From sequence record MK817115.1: a stretch of 64,000 bases of DNA; one strand, 5' to 3'. The number at the start of each line of letters is the position of its first letter. The stretch's first letter is position 1. This stretch comes from Escherichia phage vB_EcoM_phAPEC6. The position numbers and the translations under genes are program-made. A model generated the notes under the pieces. That model did not search any database and had not been told where the DNA came from. It saw only the letters and a program-made list of their open reading frames with translations. Below, piece by piece: positions 12,083-47,559 of this stretch.

Positions 12083-12739
12083 TTATTTTTTAACGTATCC
12101 TAGAACACGTTTAACTTTCTTTTCATTCTCAGAAAGCCATGTTTTCATTTCTTCTTTTGAACTAAAGTATTTAGTACCCACAGTTCCGCGAATACTTTCC
12201 ATTTTTACACCAACTTTACTTGGTTTAACAGATTCTTTCATTTCACGTTCAGTTGGTACTGGTTCAGAGATAATGTCTTCTTCAAAGTCTGCGTCTGCAT
12301 CCATATCAAAAGTTGGGGTATCTGCTGCAATATCAATATCAACATCTTCACTTCCAATATCAGAAACATCTGGACCGTCAGTGATATCACCAGTTAGTTT
12401 AAGTGTTTCAGTACTGATTTTGTCTTTTACATCCATTAAGGTAGTAACTGCATGTTGTAGTAGATGGCGAACATTATCACTAAAATTTTGTGCAGCATCT
12501 AGACCTTGCTCGGCTTTAATACGGTCAAGTAGTGGGCCTAGTACGTCAACACCCATGTTGTTAATAACCTCAGATTGACGTTGGAGTTTATCAACAATCT
12601 CACCTTTTACTGAAAGAACAATTTCTGCTTTTTCAATATTAGATTCATTTAATTGAATAAACTTCATAGCTTCTGCACGAGAAGCTGCTTCCATTAGTTT
12701 TTTATATTTTGACATTTGTATTTCCTTATAAAATATCAC
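12083..12739 (-). CDS. Hypothetical acidic protein
   Basis: 218 aa ORF; true start may be the internal Met at 12715. Confidence 0.4.
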   Translation of the reverse strand: MIFYKEIQMSKYKKLMEAASRAEAMKFIQLNESNIEKAEIVLSVKGEIVDKLQRQSEVINNMGVDVLGPLLDRIKAEQGLDAAQNFSDNVRHLLQHAVTTLMDVKDKISTETLKLTGDITDGPDVSDIGSEDVDIDIAADTPTFDMDADADFEEDIISEPVPTEREMKESVKPSKVGVKMESIRGTVGTKYFSSKEEMKTWLSENEKKVKRVLGYVKK

Positions 12740-12748
12740 TCATTTTAT

Positions 12749-13420
12749 TTACTTTATATAACCTTCGCCTTTTAGAAAGTTTAATACACGCTCTTTTAAT
12801 TTATACGCTTCAGCTTTCTTTTCTGCAATAATTATATCTAAATCTTTTGCTTCATCATACTTCGATTCATTAAGTACGCGTTGACGTTTCTGGGCTGCTT
12901 TCAATGCTTCACTAATCACATTCGTGTATTGAAGACCCGAACTGATTATACCAAGTACTTTTGCATCTGTCAACATTCTTCCTTCATTGAGAAGGTTAAC
13001 TAATGTAAGTGCTGCTTCATACATCATAATATTATTCATAATAATTTGTGAACTATGATTACACTTAATGCTATAAACTTTTGTAGATTTAGTACCTTGT
13101 ACTTTTTCTTCCACTAAACTCCAATTAGTTTTTGGTTTAATAGGTGCTTGTGATGGTCGTGGTGATTGTACTGGTGAATTCCCTGATAAATGTTCATTAT
13201 ATGGAGAATTGTATTGTACCATATGTGGATGTTGCGGTTCACCATAATCCATACCTGCTTCATTCAATGAAGTTAAAATAGAAGCCATAGCACCGATATC
13301 ACCACCAGTTTTATATGGAACCCCTGATGCGTTATGTGTTTCACCAGCTTCAATGTCATTCAATCCACTTAACAAATCAGCCATCTGATTAACTGATTGT
13401 TGATCATATTCGTAATTCAT
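12749..13420 (-). CDS. Hypothetical protein
   Basis: 223 aa ORF. Confidence 0.4.
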   Translation of the reverse strand: MNYEYDQQSVNQMADLLSGLNDIEAGETHNASGVPYKTGGDIGAMASILTSLNEAGMDYGEPQHPHMVQYNSPYNEHLSGNSPVQSPRPSQAPIKPKTNWSLVEEKVQGTKSTKVYSIKCNHSSQIIMNNIMMYEAALTLVNLLNEGRMLTDAKVLGIISSGLQYTNVISEALKAAQKRQRVLNESKYDEAKDLDIIIAEKKAEAYKLKERVLNFLKGEGYIK

Positions 13421-40984: not shown

Positions 40985-41500
40985 TCATTTTTTTTCCGGT
41001 TTAACTGGAAATGAAAATGTTTTCTTGATCATGTCTGCTGGTTTGATTGAATTCAATTGCGTTACATAATCTTTCAATTTTACAAACAATACAGCTTCTT
41101 CATCAGTTGCTAACTCAAGATCCATAGCAGTTTTTAAGTGTCCAAGTTCTTGAATTGCAATGTATTTCAAATTAGATAATTCATTTTTTAGGCGTTCAAT
41201 TTTTTCTTCTTTAGTTTCAATATAGTCATGAATAGTATTTCCATCGTAAACCATACCATAAAGTTTGTTAATATCACCATCATATTCAATTTCAGAAACA
41301 CTAAAACCTAAAGGTACTAGATCATAAATGTTATATGATGCTGAAACAATTAAACCGTTAATATCATACATAAATTTTGCTTTATTAATGTCAAACAATT
41401 CACGAGATTCATACCAATCCATACCTTCATCGGACATCATATACAAAGAATTAGGATTACCACCTTCTTTTTCATACATCTTAAAATTTGTTAGTTGCAT
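40985..41500 (-). CDS. Tail fibre assembly chaperone (Tfa-like)
   Basis: C-terminus ATDEEAVLFVKLKDYVTQLNSIKPADMIKKTFSFPVKPE typical of Tfa-family chaperones; directly downstream of the tail fibre gene. Confidence 0.5.
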   Translation of the reverse strand: MQLTNFKMYEKEGGNPNSLYMMSDEGMDWYESRELFDINKAKFMYDINGLIVSASYNIYDLVPLGFSVSEIEYDGDINKLYGMVYDGNTIHDYIETKEEKIERLKNELSNLKYIAIQELGHLKTAMDLELATDEEAVLFVKLKDYVTQLNSIKPADMIKKTFSFPVKPEKK

Positions 41501-41510
41501 TACACATTCC

Positions 41511-43121
41511 TTATTGTTGACGTACTGTTTCCCAGTTACCATTTATTTGCATTTGAACATAGCGATAACTAATTCGTTCTAAGTGAGTGCCTGAACTACC
41601 ATTAACAGAAATCCATACGCCATCCATAAATGCACCTTCTGGTGTATATGTCCATGAAGAATCAGGTATTTTACTTGTTTCAATACGTGCACTCAAACGA
41701 ATACTTTGTACGTTATTAGTACTAATTTGCAAAGTAACGTTGCCACTAGCATCAGCAGCAGTACCGTTAATTGAACGAACAATATTTTTACCACCAACAG
41801 TAGCTGAGTTGTTAGAAACAGTTAATGATGGAGCAGCTAAAGTACCAGAAGAGTTTACAGTAACTTCTGCTCCACCGGAACGTAATCTCAATGTATTATT
41901 TGAAGAGTTATGATACACTGCCGCACGCTCACCACCGCTTGCGTTACGGAAATATAGAACTAATGATGTATCATTTGACTTAATTGACGCACTGTTTGCA
42001 ATAGTCAATGAACCAGTCATTGTATCACCAGTTTTTAGTACATAACGAGTGTTTGCAACTTTTTCACTCAATGCGACGTTAGATTCAGCAATGTTATATA
42101 GATATGCAACGTTAAAGTGTTCCACATCAATGTTACTAATACCATGATAGTGTGGTTGGTTTCCACCAAGTGTGTTAGTGTTTCCACTAAATGAGTGAAT
42201 GTGGTCTGGTGCTTCGTTAATGTTATTGATTACAGTTGGTATACCGTTATCATTACTTGAAGTTAACGCATTTAGACCACTACGGTCCATACCTTTTAGT
42301 GCTTGACTATGACCATGACGACCAGCAGCCCCTGTGGTCCCACTAAAACTAAATGAGTGTGATGGTAATTGGGCAACACTTAATACTGTGCCGCTAATAT
42401 TACCGCTACTACCAATAACACTATCAGTTTTAGTTACACCTGATGTGGATATCCCTTTTAAGTACGCGTTTTGGTTAAGGTTTGGTACTTGTTTGGTAAT
42501 TGTACCATTTTCCCCCTCCCATTGCCACCACATACCATCAGCAAAACACCAACCGTCAGACGTTTTCCACGGAGCACCTTGTGAACCGTTTCTCCCACTT
42601 TGTCCATTCGATTGTCCTGACATTTGTTCACGTATACTAGCAACAGATTGACCAGAAGTCAATGAATATTGTGTAATAGCACCTGGTTTAAGTGAAGTGT
42701 AAAGACCAGTTGGACCAGAACCACCACTAGAAGCAGTAGGGAATACAATGTTTAAGTTTGTTCCACTAATACTTGCACTAGGAACAGTACTACTACTGTA
42801 TGTTACACTTTCTACTTTTAAATTTAATTTTCTGTTTACTTCATCTAATGAAATTCTAATTGGTTCCAAAATAGTATCAGTATCGTATACTGCAATCCAA
42901 CTTGTACCGTTATGATACTTCAAAACTAATTCGTTTCGATCAAAAACCATTGCACCTTGTTCACCAGTAGGTAACGTTTGTACTGGTATAATAACTGATG
43001 ACGAATTAAAACGAATAGGTCTTGGGTTAGTTGGTGTACCACCAAGCACTATTAGTTCTAAAGATCCATTAGCACCAGTACTGGTCATTGTATCCAATGG
43101 GTTATTAAAACTTATGCTCAT
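41511..43121 (-). CDS. Tail fibre protein
   Basis: 536 aa; Ser/Gly/Thr/Asn-rich; GDTMTG repeat; three His-x-His motifs (RHGHS, DHIHSF, PHYHGI); AATAAATA late-like box upstream. Confidence 0.6.
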   Translation of the reverse strand: MSISFNNPLDTMTSTGANGSLELIVLGGTPTNPRPIRFNSSSVIIPVQTLPTGEQGAMVFDRNELVLKYHNGTSWIAVYDTDTILEPIRISLDEVNRKLNLKVESVTYSSSTVPSASISGTNLNIVFPTASSGGSGPTGLYTSLKPGAITQYSLTSGQSVASIREQMSGQSNGQSGRNGSQGAPWKTSDGWCFADGMWWQWEGENGTITKQVPNLNQNAYLKGISTSGVTKTDSVIGSSGNISGTVLSVAQLPSHSFSFSGTTGAAGRHGHSQALKGMDRSGLNALTSSNDNGIPTVINNINEAPDHIHSFSGNTNTLGGNQPHYHGISNIDVEHFNVAYLYNIAESNVALSEKVANTRYVLKTGDTMTGSLTIANSASIKSNDTSLVLYFRNASGGERAAVYHNSSNNTLRLRSGGAEVTVNSSGTLAAPSLTVSNNSATVGGKNIVRSINGTAADASGNVTLQISTNNVQSIRLSARIETSKIPDSSWTYTPEGAFMDGVWISVNGSSGTHLERISYRYVQMQINGNWETVRQQ

Positions 43122-43161
43122 GTATAAATCCCTTTATGATTAATATATACTATATTTATTC

Positions 43162-43488
43162 CTATAGCAAGTCGTTATCCATATCATCCCACACAGAATC
43201 AATGATGTTTGCTGCTATCTTTTTAGACATTTTAAACCACTCCGTGTTTGGTTGTCTAGTTGCATTCATTTGTTTAAGCCTTTTATGTATCTCTTTTTCA
43301 GCTAAACGTGCGTCTTCAAAGTGAACTTCATGATAAACTTCAAAATCACGAAACGGGGTAGCTGTCTGATACGTTCTCAAACGCTCTGTCATTTCAGATT
43401 TAGAAGTGAAACCAATCTTAACATAGTCAGGCCATGCAGAGTTTATTATAACATAACATATCTGTGACATAGATTCAATCTCCATCAT
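43162..43488 (-). CDS. T5orf172-domain protein (GIY-YIG superfamily)
   Basis: 108 aa; ICYVIIN ... YVKIGFT ... R ... E ... EWF pattern. Confidence 0.5.
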   Translation of the reverse strand: MMEIESMSQICYVIINSAWPDYVKIGFTSKSEMTERLRTYQTATPFRDFEVYHEVHFEDARLAEKEIHKRLKQMNATRQPNTEWFKMSKKIAANIIDSVWDDMDNDLL

Positions 43489-43509
43489 TAATATGGAGAT
43501 ATTTATCTA

Positions 43510-43869
43510 TCAACTAATAGTGAATTTTAAACCAATATCAATTAAACGTTGAAAAGGATTATGTGGCTGAAATTCCGATGGTTCTTGTGCAATGTTTAGC
43601 ACAGGAGCATCAGAATGCAGCACCGACATACGTTCTCTATAATGATCGATGTATTCTTCATACAACATATCTTCAGTATGTGTATTAAGTATATCTTCTA
43701 TGAAAGAATCTAAACTATAATCCAATCTATCATCATTATAATACAATGTTTCAGTGGCTTCATCATATCCAACTAACGTACCATAAGGAACATTTATTTC
43801 TATATTTGAGTACTGACTCTTTAAGTACTCTTCTCTATTAAATTTGTATACAGTTAACATCCGTGTCAA
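43510..43869 (-). CDS. Hypothetical protein
   Basis: 119 aa ORF. Confidence 0.4.
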   Translation of the reverse strand: MTRMLTVYKFNREEYLKSQYSNIEINVPYGTLVGYDEATETLYYNDDRLDYSLDSFIEDILNTHTEDMLYEEYIDHYRERMSVLHSDAPVLNIAQEPSEFQPHNPFQRLIDIGLKFTIS

Positions 43870-43883
43870 CTCCTTTAGATTGT

Positions 43884-44981
43884 TTACTTAAAGTTATTTA
43901 CAATTTTCAGTACAGATTTTAGATACTTTTCATCAAACGTTTCAGTAAATCCTGACGGCAACTCTTCAGTACTTACTACTCCACTTTCAATGTATTTCTT
44001 TATGAACTTTTCCAACAATAATGGTTGATTGCCATCCTCAAAGTAACGTTCTACCAGTACTTCATGCTCGAACTCAGAATTGCGGCTTTGTTCATTGACA
44101 CGGCGTTTCATATCACCTGTAATTCCATATTTGTACACCGTCTTATCATTATTAGTTAATTTTTGAACATAGAAATATCCAGGTTTTGATGGTTGATATC
44201 CATATTCCCCACATGATGGACATCCTTTACCAGCCATATGTGCTTTTGGTTGTTGGGAGAAGACACCATGAGTCGGACATACAATATCAATATAATTCTC
44301 GCTTAAAGTATATTCAACCAAGCTATAATCATACTTATGGTTATGGATAGGCGACACAAGTTCAATGAAACGTTCAGTGCTTCTTCCACCTTTACCAGAA
44401 CATGTACCGCAGCCAGTTTTACCCTTCAATAAAGTTTGGGCTGAAACAGTCCATTCGTGTTTACCGCGTGTACAGTATACGGTAACTTCCGTCTTATTGT
44501 TAACATATTTGGTATTTGGAAATTCAAACGCATTGCCATAGTTTTCTTTTACTTTTGCGATGAATGATTCAGTACTGTATGCTTCATTTTTATTACATAC
44601 AGGACAGCCCTTACCAGAAAGAAATTTGTTTGGTGTAATTTCAAAGTAATCGTTATGTTCTTCATCAGTGCAGAATAGTGTTACTTTTGATATAGCGTTA
44701 GTGTAATTTAGTTTATCAAATTTGAATTTATCTTTACCAAATTTAGTTTCTACAGTACTGATGAATGTGTCGTTGTTTGAACGCTGTGACATGTTTGAAT
44801 AACATGATGCACATGTACATGCAATGTGACGAAGTGCAGGTTTGGTGTTTTCTTTCCCACACTTGTTACATTTTACTGTTGTTTTACTTGCCTTGAATAC
44901 TAAAGTACTGAAGTCAAATTCTCCATACTTAGCAGTCATTTGGTTGATAAACTCGTCTTTGTTGATACTTACGTTTGGCAT
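43884..44981 (-). CDS. Zinc-ribbon repeat protein with C-terminal GIY-YIG/T5orf172-like domain (putative homing-endonuclease-like)
   Basis: 365 aa; three K-x-G-x-GCPxC modules; C-terminal GYFYV ... YKYGIT ... RR ... E; own promoter. Confidence 0.5.
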   Translation of the reverse strand: MPNVSINKDEFINQMTAKYGEFDFSTLVFKASKTTVKCNKCGKENTKPALRHIACTCASCYSNMSQRSNNDTFISTVETKFGKDKFKFDKLNYTNAISKVTLFCTDEEHNDYFEITPNKFLSGKGCPVCNKNEAYSTESFIAKVKENYGNAFEFPNTKYVNNKTEVTVYCTRGKHEWTVSAQTLLKGKTGCGTCSGKGGRSTERFIELVSPIHNHKYDYSLVEYTLSENYIDIVCPTHGVFSQQPKAHMAGKGCPSCGEYGYQPSKPGYFYVQKLTNNDKTVYKYGITGDMKRRVNEQSRNSEFEHEVLVERYFEDGNQPLLLEKFIKKYIESGVVSTEELPSGFTETFDEKYLKSVLKIVNNFK

Positions 44982-45013
44982 AATTCTGTCTCTATGTTTG
45001 TGTGTATGTGCGT

Positions 45014-45042
45014 ATTATACATAACCAAAAACATCATGTCAA
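45014..45042 (-). promoter_or_regulatory. Consensus sigma70 promoter, TTGACA-N17-TATAAT
   Basis: Read on the minus strand; perfect -35 and -10 hexamers with 17 nt spacer, upstream of the Zn-ribbon/GIY-YIG-like gene. Confidence 0.55.
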
Positions 45043-45050
45043 TGTTTTTA

Positions 45051-45087
45051 ATAAAAAAAGGGACTCCGAAGAGTCCCTATTGTTTTT
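45051..45087. terminator. Bidirectional intrinsic terminator downstream of the capsid gene
   Basis: AGGGACTC-CGAA-GAGTCCCT 8 bp stem with T-runs on both strands. Confidence 0.65.
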
Positions 45088-45121
45088 AATTTCTTGATTA
45101 AATCTTTTAAATCGATTACAA

Positions 45122-46297
45122 TTACATGAAAGTAACGTTTTTGATAGCGATTTTGCTGTAGTAGTCAGCAGCGTTACCAAGAGATGAAGTACTGTCGGTC
45201 AACTGTACATAGCCATATCTGGTTAGAAAAGTTGTAACGAGTTCCCCAGTGTTAGGGTCCATTACAGTACCAGAAGCCATTAGTGGGATGTATGGGCAAT
45301 AGAATACACCAGCATCAGTTTCCGCATTACCTTTATAACCAATTAGAATATCTTCTGCATCACTAGCATAGGTATCAACGAAAATACGCATAGTGCTGTT
45401 TAGAGTACCTACAAACTTAACGTTAGTTGGTGCTTCGAAAGTACCTTCAGTGGTACGTGCAAAGCTAGAAGTAGTAGCAGATTGTAGAATGGTTAGTGCA
45501 GTTGGGGAAACAACAGCCCAGTTTGCAGCACCACGCTTAGTACGACGAGCAACTTCGTTTGCTTGACGGTTAATTAGAGTTGCTAGAGCAGCGTGCTCAT
45601 CACCAACGAAGGTTGCAACACCAGTAACTTTAGATTGGTCATAAGTTACAGCAGCAGCACCAGGTAGTGCACGTAGACGGCTTAGTAGCTCTTGGTCGAT
45701 TTCTACAGTAACTTCTTGAGCGATTGCAGCCATTAGTTCTGCTTCAACGTCAACACCATGTTGGGATTGAGCATCTTGTGCAGATTCAACAGTCCAACGT
45801 GCAGATAGACGACGAGATTTCGCTTCAACAGTTTCACGTAGAATACGGATGTTAACGCGACGACCCATAGTACCTTCTAGTTGGCTAGTAGGAGCAGCTT
45901 GTGGGTTGCTATTATCCGCATTTAGATCACCAGAGTAAGATTTAGCGATTTTGTATGGAGAAAGCATTTCTTCACCAGCGATTACACCAGGTGCGTTATC
46001 AGCATATTGTACACGTAGGGTGTGGATCTGACCAACTGGACCAGTCATAGGTTGAACACCGATGATTTCGTTAGCAATAACGGTTGGCATTACACGACGC
46101 ATAATTGGTAGAATCACTTTGTTTAGAGTAGCGATGTTACCAGCGGTAGTTGCACCAGAAGTTGCGGATTCAGTTAGCATAACTTTACGATGGTTATCAA
46201 GAACAGTTTCCATTACAGACTTACGAGTACCCTGTAGACCTTCAACTAGTTTCTCTTTTACTGCTACCCATTTGGATTCATTTAGTAGTTGTGACAT
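45122..46297 (-). CDS. 23: Major capsid protein (T4 gp23 family)
   Basis: 391 aa; MRRVMPTVIANEIIGVQPM, VEAKSRRLSARWTVESAQD and IGYKGNAETDAGVFYCPY align with T4 gp23 as recalled; exact TATAAATA late box upstream. Confidence 0.8.
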   Translation of the reverse strand: MSQLLNESKWVAVKEKLVEGLQGTRKSVMETVLDNHRKVMLTESATSGATTAGNIATLNKVILPIMRRVMPTVIANEIIGVQPMTGPVGQIHTLRVQYADNAPGVIAGEEMLSPYKIAKSYSGDLNADNSNPQAAPTSQLEGTMGRRVNIRILRETVEAKSRRLSARWTVESAQDAQSQHGVDVEAELMAAIAQEVTVEIDQELLSRLRALPGAAAVTYDQSKVTGVATFVGDEHAALATLINRQANEVARRTKRGAANWAVVSPTALTILQSATTSSFARTTEGTFEAPTNVKFVGTLNSTMRIFVDTYASDAEDILIGYKGNAETDAGVFYCPYIPLMASGTVMDPNTGELVTTFLTRYGYVQLTDSTSSLGNAADYYSKIAIKNVTFM

Positions 46298-46342
46298 TAT
46301 ATATCTCCTTAAAGATGTTATATTCGTTTTTCAGTATGATAT

Positions 46343-46350
46343 TATTTATA
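46343..46350 (-). promoter_or_regulatory. Late promoter box TATAAATA
   Basis: Exact T4 late consensus on the minus strand, about 45 nt upstream of the capsid gene ATG. Confidence 0.6.
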
Positions 46351-46388
46351 GAACTGAAAAATTTGATTATTAAAATGCTTTAAAATGT

Positions 46389-47504
46389 TTATTTTTTATT
46401 GATACCTGAAAGAACATCGAGTTCTTTTAGGAATGCCATATCGTCAGCGGTCATTTCTTCGCTTTCAACAATAGCCTGACGGTTGCCAGTGATTACTTTA
46501 CCTTCTGCAAGAGTTTTCTTAGCGGAAGACTGAACTGCTTGACGAGTGGTAGCAGATTCATTTACTTTAGTACCGTTAAGTACTGACTTATGGTACTTGC
46601 TGAAATCTTCTTTAAGCTTTTCAGTAGGTGAAGTAGCTAGAAGGGATTCCATAATTTGTTTTTGCTGTGCCGTTAGTGGTTTTACTAGTTCAGACATAAT
46701 CGCATTACGTGCTTGTGCATCTTCCATAATACGTAGTTTGGTTTTAGCAGCTTTAACGGCATTAGCAGTTTCATGTAGTTCTTGCTTAACTTGAGCAATT
46801 TCATCTTCTTTAGATTTAATTGATTCAGTTAGGGAACGTAGCAATGAGTTTTCATTAAATTGTTTGACATTAAACTCTTGAGCAAATGCTTCAAAGATTT
46901 TACGACCAAACATATTTTGTTTTGCTTCCACTAGATCTTGTTTCAACGCATATAGATTCTTCTGAGTGGTTTCTGCAATATATTTAGCAGCACTTTCAGA
47001 TGTACGTTTGATGAAGTTATTACGAGCTTCAGCAATTTGACGTGAACCTTCAGCAAGTAGTTTAACGCGAGTTTCTACTAGTTGGCGTTTTTCAGTGTGG
47101 AATTCTTTTAGCTCTTCTGCTAGGATACCGTTAGAAAAATTAACGAATTTACCCATGCATTCATGAAGATGCTTACGTTCTTTACGCATTTGTTTAACTT
47201 CTTCAGCCAAAACAGAGTTTGAAAACGCAGAGAAATTGCTTAGTGTTTTACGTAGAGTTACACGATCTTCAACGAGACGTTTTTTCTCTTCATATACAGC
47301 ACCCATTTCTTCAGCAATGACTTGAGTAACCATAGTGTTCAAACCTTCGGTTAGTTCAGCCAAATCTTGCTGATAACGGCCTTTCATTTCTTCACGCATC
47401 TCTGCGGCTAGTGTATTCTTTTCTTCATTCCATGCTTCCTGAATTAGCTGTTTTGCCTCATCAGAAAGAGATGATTCTTTTAGAAGCTTTTCTAATTTAG
47501 ACAT
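46389..47504 (-). CDS. 22: Prohead scaffold protein (T4 gp22 equivalent)
   Basis: 371 aa, coiled-coil-rich; between protease and capsid genes; exact TATAAATA late box upstream. Confidence 0.6.
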   Translation of the reverse strand: MSKLEKLLKESSLSDEAKQLIQEAWNEEKNTLAAEMREEMKGRYQQDLAELTEGLNTMVTQVIAEEMGAVYEEKKRLVEDRVTLRKTLSNFSAFSNSVLAEEVKQMRKERKHLHECMGKFVNFSNGILAEELKEFHTEKRQLVETRVKLLAEGSRQIAEARNNFIKRTSESAAKYIAETTQKNLYALKQDLVEAKQNMFGRKIFEAFAQEFNVKQFNENSLLRSLTESIKSKEDEIAQVKQELHETANAVKAAKTKLRIMEDAQARNAIMSELVKPLTAQQKQIMESLLATSPTEKLKEDFSKYHKSVLNGTKVNESATTRQAVQSSAKKTLAEGKVITGNRQAIVESEEMTADDMAFLKELDVLSGINKK

Positions 47505-47551: not shown

Positions 47552-47559
47552 TATTTATA
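47552..47559 (-). promoter_or_regulatory. Late promoter box TATAAATA
   Basis: Exact match on the minus strand upstream of the scaffold gene; overlaps one arm of an 11 bp inverted repeat. Confidence 0.55.

Follow-up and report, generated by a model that had tools for sequence, protein, structure and literature searches.

Why does a jumbo phage carry two T5orf172-type genes side by side next to its major capsid gene, and does the cluster represent a selfish insertion? The question is raised by a window of 64,000 nt (the whole stretch of DNA analysed) from an Escherichia phage of the genus Asteriusvirus (Rak2-like jumbo phage), the sequence of which was compared under the name SP27. A first-pass annotation had placed the cluster between the tail-fibre gene and the capsid terminator, and this position is borne out (41511-43121 and 45078..45059, respectively). 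Two minus-strand ORFs, 43884-44981 (365 aa) and 43162-43488 (108 aa), enclose a third gene, orf116 (43510-43860), whose true start is an ATG. The features of the locus are listed below.

41511..43121, minus strand: tail-fibre gene (phrog_13229, 1.1e-273), the context on the downstream side
43162..43488, minus strand: small stand-alone T5orf172 gene (Pfam T5orf172, 3.7e-13; MUG113, 9.3e-13)
43510..43860, minus strand: orf116 (phrog_15724, 9.4e-58)
43884..44981, minus strand: predicted free-standing T5orf172-type homing endonuclease gene, 365 aa (phrog_681 'endonuclease', 1.9e-76)
45014..45042, minus strand: sigma-70 consensus promoter TTGACA-17-TATAAT (12/12 match)
45059..45078, minus strand: intrinsic terminator of the capsid gene (8-bp stem with 5 GC pairs, then a T run)
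45122..46297, minus strand: gp23-like major capsid protein gene, 391 aa (Pfam Gp23, 1.3e-89)

The smaller ORF does span 108 codons, as first annotated, but its start is probably an internal Met preceded by GGAG; this start, which most relatives also have in their annotation, gives a protein of 102 aa (43162-43470). No paralogue of any of the three proteins was found elsewhere in the window, a search of all three against NCBIfam gave 0 matches, and we found no literature specific to this locus in Asteriusvirus.

In the 365-aa protein, four zinc-finger modules precede a C-terminal T5orf172 domain that has the GIY-YIG nuclease fold. In the gene, which runs on the minus strand, these parts map as follows.

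44796..44960, minus strand: zinc module 1, aa 8-62, a variant (C38, C41, C55, C57, C60)
44589..44774, minus strand: zinc module 2, aa 70-131 (C104, H109, C126, C129; DUF4379/DUF723/CapR matches across homologues)
44391..44573, minus strand: zinc module 3, aa 137-197 (C170, H175, C191, C194)
44202..44378, minus strand: zinc module 4, aa 202-260 (C235, H238, C254, C257; Pfam DUF723 at aa 218-258)
43887..44186, minus strand: T5orf172 / GIY-YIG-fold nuclease domain, aa 266-365

In the AF2 model the zinc modules appear as four repeated alpha-beta-beta-alpha units carrying Cys/His ligand sets, with the C-terminal domain behind them. The first-pass annotation had counted three K-x-G-x-GCPxC zinc-ribbon modules; there are four, the first being a CxxC...CxCxxC variant, and the GCPxC motif itself is present in two of modules 2-4, while the remaining one reads GCGTC. 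Against Pfam T5orf172 the protein scores 18.7 bits, just under the curated cut-off of 20 bits. It is nevertheless assigned to this family because it matches phrog_681 (1.9e-76), because 19 of 36 homologues match T5orf172, and because its C-terminal domain, when modelled alone, matches the GIY-YIG fold. Thus, of the two T5orf172/GIY-YIG-like domains originally proposed, the one in the small protein is clear, and the one in the 365-aa protein is sub-threshold in Pfam and recognised through the phrog, the homologues and the fold. Homologues of the 365-aa protein number 962, and the Pfam matches in the set of 36 are to DUF4379 (32/36), DUF723 (19/36), T5orf172 (19/36), MUG113 (18/36) and CapR (8/36).

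Within the nuclease domain, Y271, K284, G286 and E347 are invariant in the 36 homologues and R294 is nearly so. The G286-R294 spacing equals that of G19-R27 in I-TevI. The catalytic set expected of this class is a Tyr in strand 1, an Arg in helix 1 and a Glu (E75 in I-TevI, E180 in the ICP1 nuclease Odn), and by motif position E347 would be the equivalent of Odn E180. The second motif of the domain reads K-Y-G, with an invariant Lys in the Tyr position, and thus departs from the canonical GIY/YIG tyrosine motifs; with a threshold of E<=0.1, Pfam's canonical GIY-YIG family was not matched by the protein. A sequence search of PDB chains with both T5orf172 proteins gave no meaningful match. Foldseek comparison of the full-length 365-aa model with the PDB returned spurious low-TM matches only, because the model is a string of beads (pTM 0.38). 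PADLOC reported a chance-level match for the 365-aa protein (Cas12u4, E=0.0076) and, for the small protein, matches to PDC-S57 and PD-Lambda-1 in their T5orf172-like portion only (in PDC-S57, positions 3-93 of 212); neither protein had a full-length match to a defence-system protein.

The first-pass annotation considered this architecture unusual. In fact it is the standard design of T5orf172 homing endonuclease genes (HEGs): in a survey of such genes, repeated CapR/DUF723/DUF4379 fingers followed by T5orf172 are the majority architecture, with such fingers in 200 of 229 cases (Barth, Dunham & Seed 2023, PMC10448857). The same N-terminal array and C-terminal domain characterise T5orf172 HEGs of ICP1, T5-like and other phages (PMC8096241, PMC10448857), and in tblastn the 365-aa protein is 32.9% identical over aa 212-364 to the ICP1 'tcgB putative homing endonuclease'. 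These HEGs resemble the SP27 gene further in that they stand free beside an essential structural gene, shuffle modules between alleles and replace one another, class by class, at one site; they often lie beside capsid genes, and a capsid gene is present in 31% of the neighbourhoods surveyed. Particular to the present case are the number of modules, four, and the consensus sigma-70 promoter carried along, and the Rak2-like Asteriusvirus coliphages are not among the lineages named as enriched in T5orf172 HEGs in the sections of the survey considered here. The function of T5orf172 domains, described at first as unresolved, is also better established than that: ICP1 Odn (Gp88) cleaves DNA in vitro, an activity that the E180A substitution abolishes (Barth et al. 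2021, PMC8263062), and the zinc-finger cysteines of CapR are needed for DNA binding (Netter et al. 2021, PMC8096241).

We compared the locus among 25 relatives. Only the 365-aa gene and its promoter are variable, and junction alignment places the limits of the variable slot at the capsid-gene terminator upstream and at the ATG of orf116 downstream. The slot is empty in PBECO4, SD-1_S14, fEgEco12, CMSTMSU, Serratia BF, CBB and fHe-Yen9-04, with empty-site lengths of 71-118 nt; the first four of these share the same two junctions. The terminator is conserved in occupied and empty alleles alike, in every relative for which slot sequence was displayed. The cassette, that is, the 365-aa gene with its own promoter, spans about 43861-45050 and also supplies the ribosome-binding site of orf116. 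Hence the synteny comparison proposed at the outset did uncover empty-site alleles, and these define the slot. Elsewhere the slot is occupied by mosaic alleles of 365/368 aa or of 306/307 aa, the latter lacking zinc module 1, by a 332-aa T5orf172 gene only 27% identical, or by a 532-552-aa DUF7487 + REase-like gene, a PD-(D/E)XK-type nuclease unrelated to the 365-aa gene; phage 7t3 has a CapR-domain gene there.

The history of the 365-aa gene disagrees with that of its flanks, which indicates horizontal movement. Between SP27 and vB_Ec-M-J the zinc-finger modules are 96.7-99.5% identical and the nuclease domain 91%, whereas the flanking orf116 and small gene are only 80.6% and 82.5% identical; by contrast, the same two flanking genes are 98.0% and 99.7% identical between SP27 and PBECO4, the slot of which is empty. 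The synonymous distances from vB_Ec-M-J tell the same story (dS is 0.15 in the 365-aa gene and 0.30 in the capsid gene; in orf116 and the small gene it is 1.0-1.5). Zinc module 3 occurs in two very divergent allele classes: EcMJ and ELP-22 are 97-98% identical to SP27 in this module, whereas the remaining 365/368-aa alleles reach about 69-75%. All alleles are intact ORFs, and the dN/dS of the 365-aa gene is 0.10-0.12.

The promoter travels with the cassette, and empty sites lack it. The perfect sigma-70 promoter originally reported for the larger gene is indeed a 12/12 TTGACA-N17-TATAAT match at 45042..45014, and its -10 hexamer ends 32 nt from the ATG of the 365-aa gene (28-35 nt across the cassette-bearing relatives). 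By chance, 0.02 perfect matches of this kind would be expected in a window; 2 were found. It is retained as 12/12 in eight of the nine relatives with the 365/368-aa allele and as 11/12 in the ninth, 121Q; the 306/307-aa alleles also have 11/12.

Sequence variation is clustered around the slot. Mismatches to close relatives concentrate within about 300-400 nt of it, and those in the capsid gene are all synonymous. The last ~90 capsid codons (about 45122-45391), which adjoin the slot, form a hotspot of purely synonymous variation that includes Ser-codon family switches. Between SP27 and PBECO4 all 19 capsid codon differences are synonymous, 14 of them falling in codons 306-368 (binomial P=2.3e-6), and the mismatch density is 18 per 270 nt against 5 per 906 nt (Fisher P=2e-8). 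This makes the capsid 3' end a candidate region for the cleavage site or the co-conversion tract of the nuclease. Across 23 genomes, no capsid nucleotide was found by which genomes with the cassette can be told without exception from those lacking it. Codon 365 was a perfect discriminator with 11 genomes and failed with 23, codon 367 fails through ph0011 alone, and a recoded patch at codons 368-373 is present in 9/9 relatives with the 365/368-aa allele and absent from SP27 itself.

The other two genes behave differently from the cassette. The small T5orf172 protein is well above the family cut-off (Pfam T5orf172 50.3 bits, cut-off 20; MUG113 49 bits), as is its Serratia BF orthologue for Pfam, and its gene occupies the same position in all relatives, Eneladusvirus and Mimasvirus included. 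The gene order, capsid, hypothetical gene, T5orf172, tail fibre, assembly protein, hypothetical gene and DNA polymerase, is shared across Asteriusvirus, Eneladusvirus (BF, fHe-Yen9-04) and Mimasvirus (CBB), and amino acid identity of the small protein is 68-78% in 7t3, CBB and fHe-Yen9-04. orf116 is present in all Asteriusvirus relatives; Serratia BF, CBB and fHe-Yen9-04 have a 138-143-aa gene in its place, matched by position alone. With dN/dS of 0.03-0.04 for the small gene and 0.02-0.12 for orf116, both are old conserved residents under strong purifying selection. They lie outside the mobile cassette, since the small gene and orf116 or its positional counterpart are found in every relative, other genera included. 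The initial reading of the whole cluster as a homing-endonuclease-like selfish insertion therefore stands for the 365-aa gene, with its empty sites, nuclease fold and discordant flanks, and falls for the small gene and orf116. That all three genes entered as a single selfish block, an idea prompted by two T5orf172-type domains lying within 1.9 kb, is barely credible: the small gene follows orf116 or its counterpart even beside the empty slots of other genera, both genes are strongly constrained (dN/dS 0.02-0.12), and the relationship between the two nuclease domains is remote.

The family of the small protein was noted by Iyer, Anantharaman, Krishnan, Burroughs & Aravind (2021, PMC7824862), who proposed a role in recombination or Holliday-junction resolution and gave the Ecwhy_1 orthologue QAY00453.1 as their own example. 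The Uri/T5orf172 endonuclease of their 'group 2.2' jumbo phages is, like the small gene, a stand-alone nuclease domain conserved across the group. The protein is most likely a working nuclease of the phage's own DNA metabolism. The Rak2-like phages of this group also have a T4 endonuclease VII homologue (121Q gene 594) beside this proposed Holliday-junction-resolvase-like protein. Two further ideas on the residents were discarded. The cassette did not arise recently by the joining of zinc fingers to the resident nuclease, since hhalign finds only a weak match between its nuclease domain and the small-protein family (probability 51%, E=1.5e-4). That orf116, which has no Pfam match, is the decayed DNA-binding half of an old HEG is rejected because it lacks any Cys/His motif or domain match.

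Taken together, the 365-aa gene and its promoter are probably a free-standing homing endonuclease cassette of the T5orf172 type (GIY-YIG superfamily), set in the slot between the capsid terminator and orf116. In the mechanism that we infer, host RNA polymerase would read the cassette early from the consensus sigma-70 promoter. By analogy with homologues, the four tandem zinc-finger modules would recognise a long DNA site, with the cut made nearby by the T5orf172 domain at the C-terminus. On mixed infection with a cassette-free relative, the cut would fall in or near the slot, most likely in the capsid-gene 3' end or in the short empty-site spacer, and recombination repair from the cassette-bearing genome would copy the cassette together with stretches of flanking sequence. 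Repeated rounds with varied donors and nuclease genes could leave the synonymous patchwork that extends over the 3' end of the capsid gene as well as orf116 and the small gene, and also the mosaic zinc-finger modules inside the 365-aa gene. Against this reading stand the sub-threshold Pfam score of the 365-aa protein, its weak profile similarity to the small T5orf172 protein and the lack of a capsid nucleotide that tracks the cassette. The mosaic pattern might also result from homologous recombination of the ordinary kind at a hotspot in which no nuclease takes part. A broader version, which we regard as unlikely though not negligibly so, takes the slot as a shared landing pad in which at least three unrelated nuclease-gene lineages compete by cutting the capsid 3' end and thereby drive its synonymous recoding; the resident small nuclease, and perhaps orf116 too, would descend from such an element, domesticated to serve phage recombination and thereby also assisting homing at this locus.

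A further parallel is with the Seg proteins of T4, also free-standing GIY-YIG-superfamily nucleases in intergenic slots. The cuts made by free-standing HEGs of T4 lie at least hundreds of bp away from the HEG itself and lead to co-conversion (PMC2988022); distant cleavage, flank co-conversion and marker exclusion would likewise be expected of the SP27 cassette. The comparison with segD made at the start is apt in position, as segD adjoins capsid gene 23, with gene 24 on its other side (Edgell, Gibb & Belfort 2010, PMC2988022), but not in orientation or expression: segD runs antisense to the genes around it and lacks a promoter of its own (PMC2988022), and no T4 HEG has an early promoter, whereas the SP27 cassette runs in the direction of the adjacent genes and brings a consensus sigma-70 promoter. 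The Seg proteins also have a canonical GIY-YIG domain, while the 365-aa protein has no canonical Pfam match and Lys for the second Tyr.

Could the 365-aa protein instead be a domesticated sequence-specific nuclease directed against a competitor phage or satellite, and not self-spreading? There is a precedent in ICP1 Odn, a T5orf172 nuclease recruited against a satellite (PMC8263062), and Barth et al. (PMC10448857) describe HEG domains co-opted in phage-satellite conflicts; a strong early-type promoter would fit a weapon, and the 365-aa gene is under purifying selection. Odn belongs to the same nuclease domain family, with the Arg and Glu positions conserved, but it binds through a RepA_N domain and serves against the satellite, whereas the 365-aa protein has a zinc-finger array and a homing-like population pattern. 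The gene is dispensable, because close relatives have empty slots; unrelated nuclease genes interchange with it in the same slot; and it moves independently of its flanks. These three properties are hallmarks of selfish homing, which leaves a purely domesticated weapon rather unlikely, and the two roles are compatible, since homing also causes marker exclusion. A regulatory precedent comes from CapR, the repressor of the ICP1 capsid operon, which derives from the same zinc-finger modules (PMC8096241). A mainly CapR-like DNA-binding regulator of the capsid and tail-fibre genes, with an inactive nuclease domain, would accord with the CapR Pfam matches in 8/36 homologues and with the position next to the capsid gene. 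CapR, however, has no nuclease domain, while the full conserved T5orf172 domain is retained here, with its Tyr, Lys, Arg and Glu positions conserved across homologues, and the gene is missing in close relatives that have the same capsid and tail-fibre genes; we consider this role extremely unlikely.

The remaining alternative dispenses with present-day mobility altogether and takes the slot as an ancestral gene deleted in some lineages, with ordinary recombination added. The unequal empty-site lengths (71-118 nt) could be deletion scars, and in the more distant genera (Serratia BF, CBB, fHe-Yen9-04) the 365-aa gene may have been absent from the start. However, loss alone does not explain zinc-finger modules 97-99.5% identical within flanks of about 80%, nor the finding of at least three unrelated nuclease genes in a single slot, and all alleles are intact with dN/dS of about 0.1. 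Deletion without endonuclease-driven movement is therefore very unlikely.

A homing cassette in SP27 would belong to a HEG type already described in other phages and is no new kind of system. Its slot is a clean natural case of homing-endonuclease turnover beside an essential gene, in a group of jumbo phages used in phage therapy work, with five states at one site: it is empty or is taken by one of two T5orf172 lineages, by a PD-(D/E)XK type or by a CapR-domain gene. The mosaic zinc-finger modules go with it, as does the patch of synonymous capsid variation, which is sharply bounded. Such turnover would account for the high variability of the capsid 3' end and the orf116/small-gene region, which vary more than any other part of genomes that are otherwise about 99% identical, and this is relevant to typing and recombination analysis of Asteriusvirus phages. 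The natural allele pairs, SP27 or 121Q versus PBECO4, suit direct tests of T5orf172 homing.

The T4-type late promoter motif TATAAATA is not enriched in the window (8 found versus 10.4 expected); copies of it do occur upstream of the capsid and scaffold genes.

Positions 41000-47000 of the window match Escherichia phage SP27 (LC494302.1), by whose name the sequence is called here, at 100% identity, and 121Q, PBECO4-type and other Asteriusvirus jumbo phages at 95-98%. The minus strand carries every gene of the region:

45122-46297, minus: gp23-like major capsid gene (Pfam Gp23, 1.3e-89), first in transcription order
45078..45059, minus: intrinsic terminator 3' of the capsid gene
45042..45014, minus: promoter TTGACA-N17-TATAAT (12/12), between the terminator and the 365-aa ORF
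43884-44981, minus: 365-aa ORF
43510-43860, minus: orf116, true start ATG (119 aa with a TTG start in the mechanical ORF list)
43162-43488, minus: small T5orf172 ORF
41511-43121, minus: tail-fibre gene (phrog_13229)

ORF, terminator, promoter and domain checks bore out the coordinates and features of the first-pass annotation. The two T5orf172/GIY-YIG-like genes that it grouped as a cluster are both present, with a third gene, orf116, overlooked between them; the smaller, listed at 108 aa, is probably 102 aa long. The perfect promoter is one of two in the window, against 0.02 expected by chance. The other (12945-12973, minus strand) lies within a 223-aa ORF (12749-13420), ~200 nt upstream of a 218-aa ORF (12083-12739).

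We fetched the locus from 25 relatives and typed the region from the capsid stop codon to the orf116 ATG. Comparison of the relatives for empty sites yielded four empty slots.

Occupancy of the slot between the capsid-gene terminator and the orf116 ATG
Empty, 71-118 nt: PBECO4, SD-1_S14, fEgEco12, CMSTMSU
No annotated gene (annotation only): Serratia BF, Pectobacterium CBB, Yersinia fHe-Yen9-04
365-aa gene: SP27, 121Q, vB_Ec-M-J, Turkey3, ELP-22, UB, JP4, CRJP21, WPEC3
368-aa version: A4
306/307-aa alleles, module 1 missing: slurp01, E9.1, WPEC5, Ecwhy_1
332-aa T5orf172 protein, 27% identical (Pfam T5orf172 1.3e-5): SHEFM2K, JNE01
532-552-aa DUF7487 + REase_MTES_1575-like (PD-(D/E)XK-type motif) protein: UE-S1, ph0011
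363-aa CapR-domain gene + 207-aa gene: Salmonella phage 7t3

The slot junctions are identical throughout: one falls just past the terminator T run, the second precisely at the orf116 ATG, and the ribosome-binding site of orf116 is supplied by the cassette, that is, the 365-aa gene with its promoter. The slot of Salmonella phage SD-1_S14 measures 71 nt versus 106-118 nt in the other empty sites; its capsid terminator abuts the orf116 ATG, spacer and ribosome-binding site both being missing, and it looks like a deletion scar. The slot genes of UE-S1 (L007:3179-4837; coordinates local to each fetched locus) and ph0011 (L008:3195-4793) are unrelated to that of SP27; they carry DUF7487 repeats (1e-12 to 1e-13), a sub-threshold REase_MTES_1575 / PD-(D/E)XK-like 'GIEFNGEYWH' motif and, faintly, a Mom-like match at the C terminus, and probably encode a homing endonuclease of a different class. 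The 332-aa gene of SHEFM2K (L016:2985-3983) and JNE01 (L022:2096-3094) lacks nucleotide similarity to the SP27 gene and is an independent T5orf172 lineage at one and the same site. In 7t3 (L025:1319-3068), a CapR homology domain was found in the 363-aa protein (5.4e-11) and no Pfam match in the 207-aa protein.

Gene and flanks are discordant in their relationships. Compared with cassette-bearing vB_Ec-M-J, SP27 is 96.7-99.5% identical in the four zinc-finger modules, 95.5% in the promoter and 91% in the nuclease domain, all of which are absent from PBECO4, where the slot is empty. Identities in orf116, the small T5orf172 gene and the tail-fibre gene are 80.6%, 82.5% and ~78% to vB_Ec-M-J and 98.0%, 99.7% and 99.1% to PBECO4. 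Between SP27 and vB_Ec-M-J (L005), the cassette gene has a dS of 0.15 and the capsid gene one of 0.30; for orf116 and the small gene (43162-43860) the values are 1.0-1.5, or 1.0-1.8 at the widest, three to six times that of the capsid gene. Since dS is lower for the cassette gene than for its flanks, the cassette is younger in SP27 than its surroundings; the slot-adjacent orf116 and small gene have a history different from, and much deeper than, that of the capsid gene. The cassette gene is also internally mosaic: module 3 falls into two classes, ~97% and 69-75% identical to SP27, which combine differently among alleles with those of module 4 (88-99.5% in most 365/368-aa alleles, ~80% in others). 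The comparative evidence for mobility of the cassette can thus be called good, and the mobile part would comprise the 365-aa gene and its promoter only. The proposal of a selfish homing-endonuclease-like insertion therefore holds for the 365-aa gene, given its empty-site alleles and gene/flank discordance, and fails for the whole cluster, the small gene and orf116 being resident.

Mismatches between SP27 and its nearest relatives (PBECO4, slurp01 and 121Q) pile up in 45100-45400, are also dense in 43300-43800 against slurp01 and 121Q, and are almost zero past 45500. All 19 codon differences from PBECO4 in the capsid gene are synonymous; 14 of the 19 fall in codons 306-368 (binomial P=2.3e-6), and the last 270 nt hold 18 mismatches versus 5 across the remaining 906 nt (Fisher P=2e-8). 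No relative exceeds 94.1% identity to SP27 over those 270 nt; over the rest of the gene, identity to the PBECO4-like group stands at 99.2-99.8%. Capsid variants form short patches in combinations differing from phage to phage. One recoded patch, codons 368-373 (including a Ser TCA-to-AGT switch), occurs in 9/9 relatives with the 365/368-aa allele and is missing in SP27 and every empty-site phage. No single capsid-gene position distinguishes cassette-bearing from cassette-free genomes, and therefore the cleavage site is not nameable from sequence alone. Repeated double-strand-break repair with co-conversion would generate such patchy variation in the slot flanks, and free-standing T4 endonucleases cleave hundreds of bp or more away from their own genes (PMC2988022). 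The main caveat is that the flank pattern could reflect ordinary recombination at a hotspot, from which a similar picture is expected.

The small gene and orf116 are residents outside the mobile cassette. They occupy one position in every Asteriusvirus examined, and in Serratia BF, Yersinia fHe-Yen9-04 (Eneladusvirus) and Pectobacterium CBB (Mimasvirus) the small gene is preceded by a 138-143-aa gene, a positional match to orf116. The common order is capsid, hypothetical gene, T5orf172, tail fibre, assembly protein, hypothetical gene and DNA polymerase. The small protein is 68-78% identical in 7t3, CBB and fHe-Yen9-04, and dN/dS is 0.03-0.04 for its gene and 0.02-0.12 for orf116. It has a clear T5orf172/MUG113 domain (Pfam, 3.7e-13) without a DNA-binding extension, and its Tyr, Lys-x-Gly, Arg and Glu positions are kept in all orthologues. 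An hhalign probability of 51% against the cassette nuclease domain suggests that the two are only remotely related. According to Iyer et al. 2021 (PMC7824862), two Uri-domain endonucleases are conserved in 'group 2.2' jumbo phages; the Ecwhy_1 orthologue (QAY00453.1) is given there as one of them, with a proposed part in recombination or in resolving Holliday junctions. 121Q gene 594 is a T4 endonuclease VII homologue, so the small protein is not the sole junction-resolvase candidate. Its kinship to two PADLOC models is at domain level only: the candidate defence protein PDC-S57 is matched over its N-terminal half (2.7e-17; model positions 3-93 of 212), and PD-Lambda-1 over the portion resembling T5orf172.

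The promoter belongs to the cassette. Of the 9 relatives with a 365/368-aa allele, 8 show a 12/12 match and 121Q an 11/12 match; the 306/307-aa alleles also have 11/12. Between the -10 hexamer and the ATG there are 28-35 nt. The PD-(D/E)XK cassettes (UE-S1, ph0011) bring their own TTGACA-type promoter, and none was found in the empty sites. The capsid and scaffold genes each have a T4-type late promoter motif (TATAAATA) ~45 nt before the start codon, at 46343-46350 and 47552-47559 on the minus strand, and 121Q encodes a gp55-like late sigma factor. A 7/8 match, TGTAAATA (43895-43902), lies within the final codons of the cassette gene, ~35 nt before orf116; another 7/8 match, TCTAAATA, is similarly placed in empty sites. 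The cassette may thus swap a late promoter serving the three downstream genes (orf116, small gene, tail fibre) for one inside its 3' end. Copies of the motif in the window number 8 versus 10.4 expected, so it is not enriched.

Pfam gave only sub-threshold matches for the 365-aa protein (T5orf172 at 18.7 bits, cut-off 20, plus DUF4379 and DUF723), and phrog_681, a PHROG family of phage 'endonucleases', covers nearly all of it (1.9e-76). A search of 5.8 billion proteins retrieved 962 homologues; among 36 scanned with Pfam, DUF4379 occurred in 32, DUF723 and T5orf172 in 19 each, MUG113 in 18 and the CapR homology domain in 8. Modelling with AlphaFold on the homologue alignment (pLDDT 85) gave four helix / beta-hairpin / helix units followed by a beta-beta-alpha-beta-alpha domain, which was also modelled separately (pLDDT 92.3, pTM 0.84). 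The zinc-ribbon repeats of the first-pass annotation are thus present, numbering four instead of three, with the following ligand sets.

Predicted zinc ligands of the 365-aa protein
Module 1: C38/C41/C55/C57/C60
Module 2: C104/H109/C126/C129
Module 3: C170/H175/C191/C194
Module 4: C235/H238/C254/C257

Residues Y271, K284, G286 and E347 are invariant among homologues and R294 nearly so. The distance from G286 to R294 equals what we take to be that from G19 to R27 in I-TevI, and E347 ('TETF' motif) is the putative counterpart of I-TevI E75 and Odn E180. The protein is under selection, with no decay, because no allele is disrupted and dN/dS lies at 0.10-0.12.

In architecture and behaviour the cassette matches the T5orf172 homing endonuclease genes (HEGs) of Barth, Dunham & Seed 2023 (PMC10448857), and appears to add to this already described kind of element. 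According to that survey, CapR/DUF723/DUF4379 zinc fingers occur in 200/229 of these genes, often repeated and shuffled, a capsid gene lies in 31% of the T5orf172 HEG neighbourhoods surveyed, and the HEG of a site can give way to another of its class that shares no nucleotide similarity, or to one of a different class, PD-(D/E)XK included. The description of the architecture as unusual is thus out of date, zinc fingers plus T5orf172 being the design reported there, as is that of T5orf172 function as unresolved, nuclease activity having been demonstrated for Odn (PMC8263062). DNA binding by the zinc-finger module has been demonstrated for CapR (PMC8096241). By tblastn, the 365-aa protein links to the ICP1 'tcgB putative homing endonuclease', and the 121Q orthologue is already annotated as 'endonuclease' in RefSeq, where the small gene goes by 'GIY-YIG nuclease family protein'. 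Our literature search found no description of this Asteriusvirus locus. The earlier comparison with T4 segD is apt for position only: segD, a canonical GIY-YIG gene, is promoterless and runs antisense to its neighbours, T4 HEGs being without early promoters (PMC2988022), whereas the SP27 cassette is co-oriented with its neighbours and has a consensus sigma-70 promoter aboard. Between the gp6-like and gp25-like baseplate genes of 121Q lies gene 584 (L026:14101-14865), which encodes an HNH endonuclease ('associated with group I intron'), and this phage group therefore has further HEG classes.
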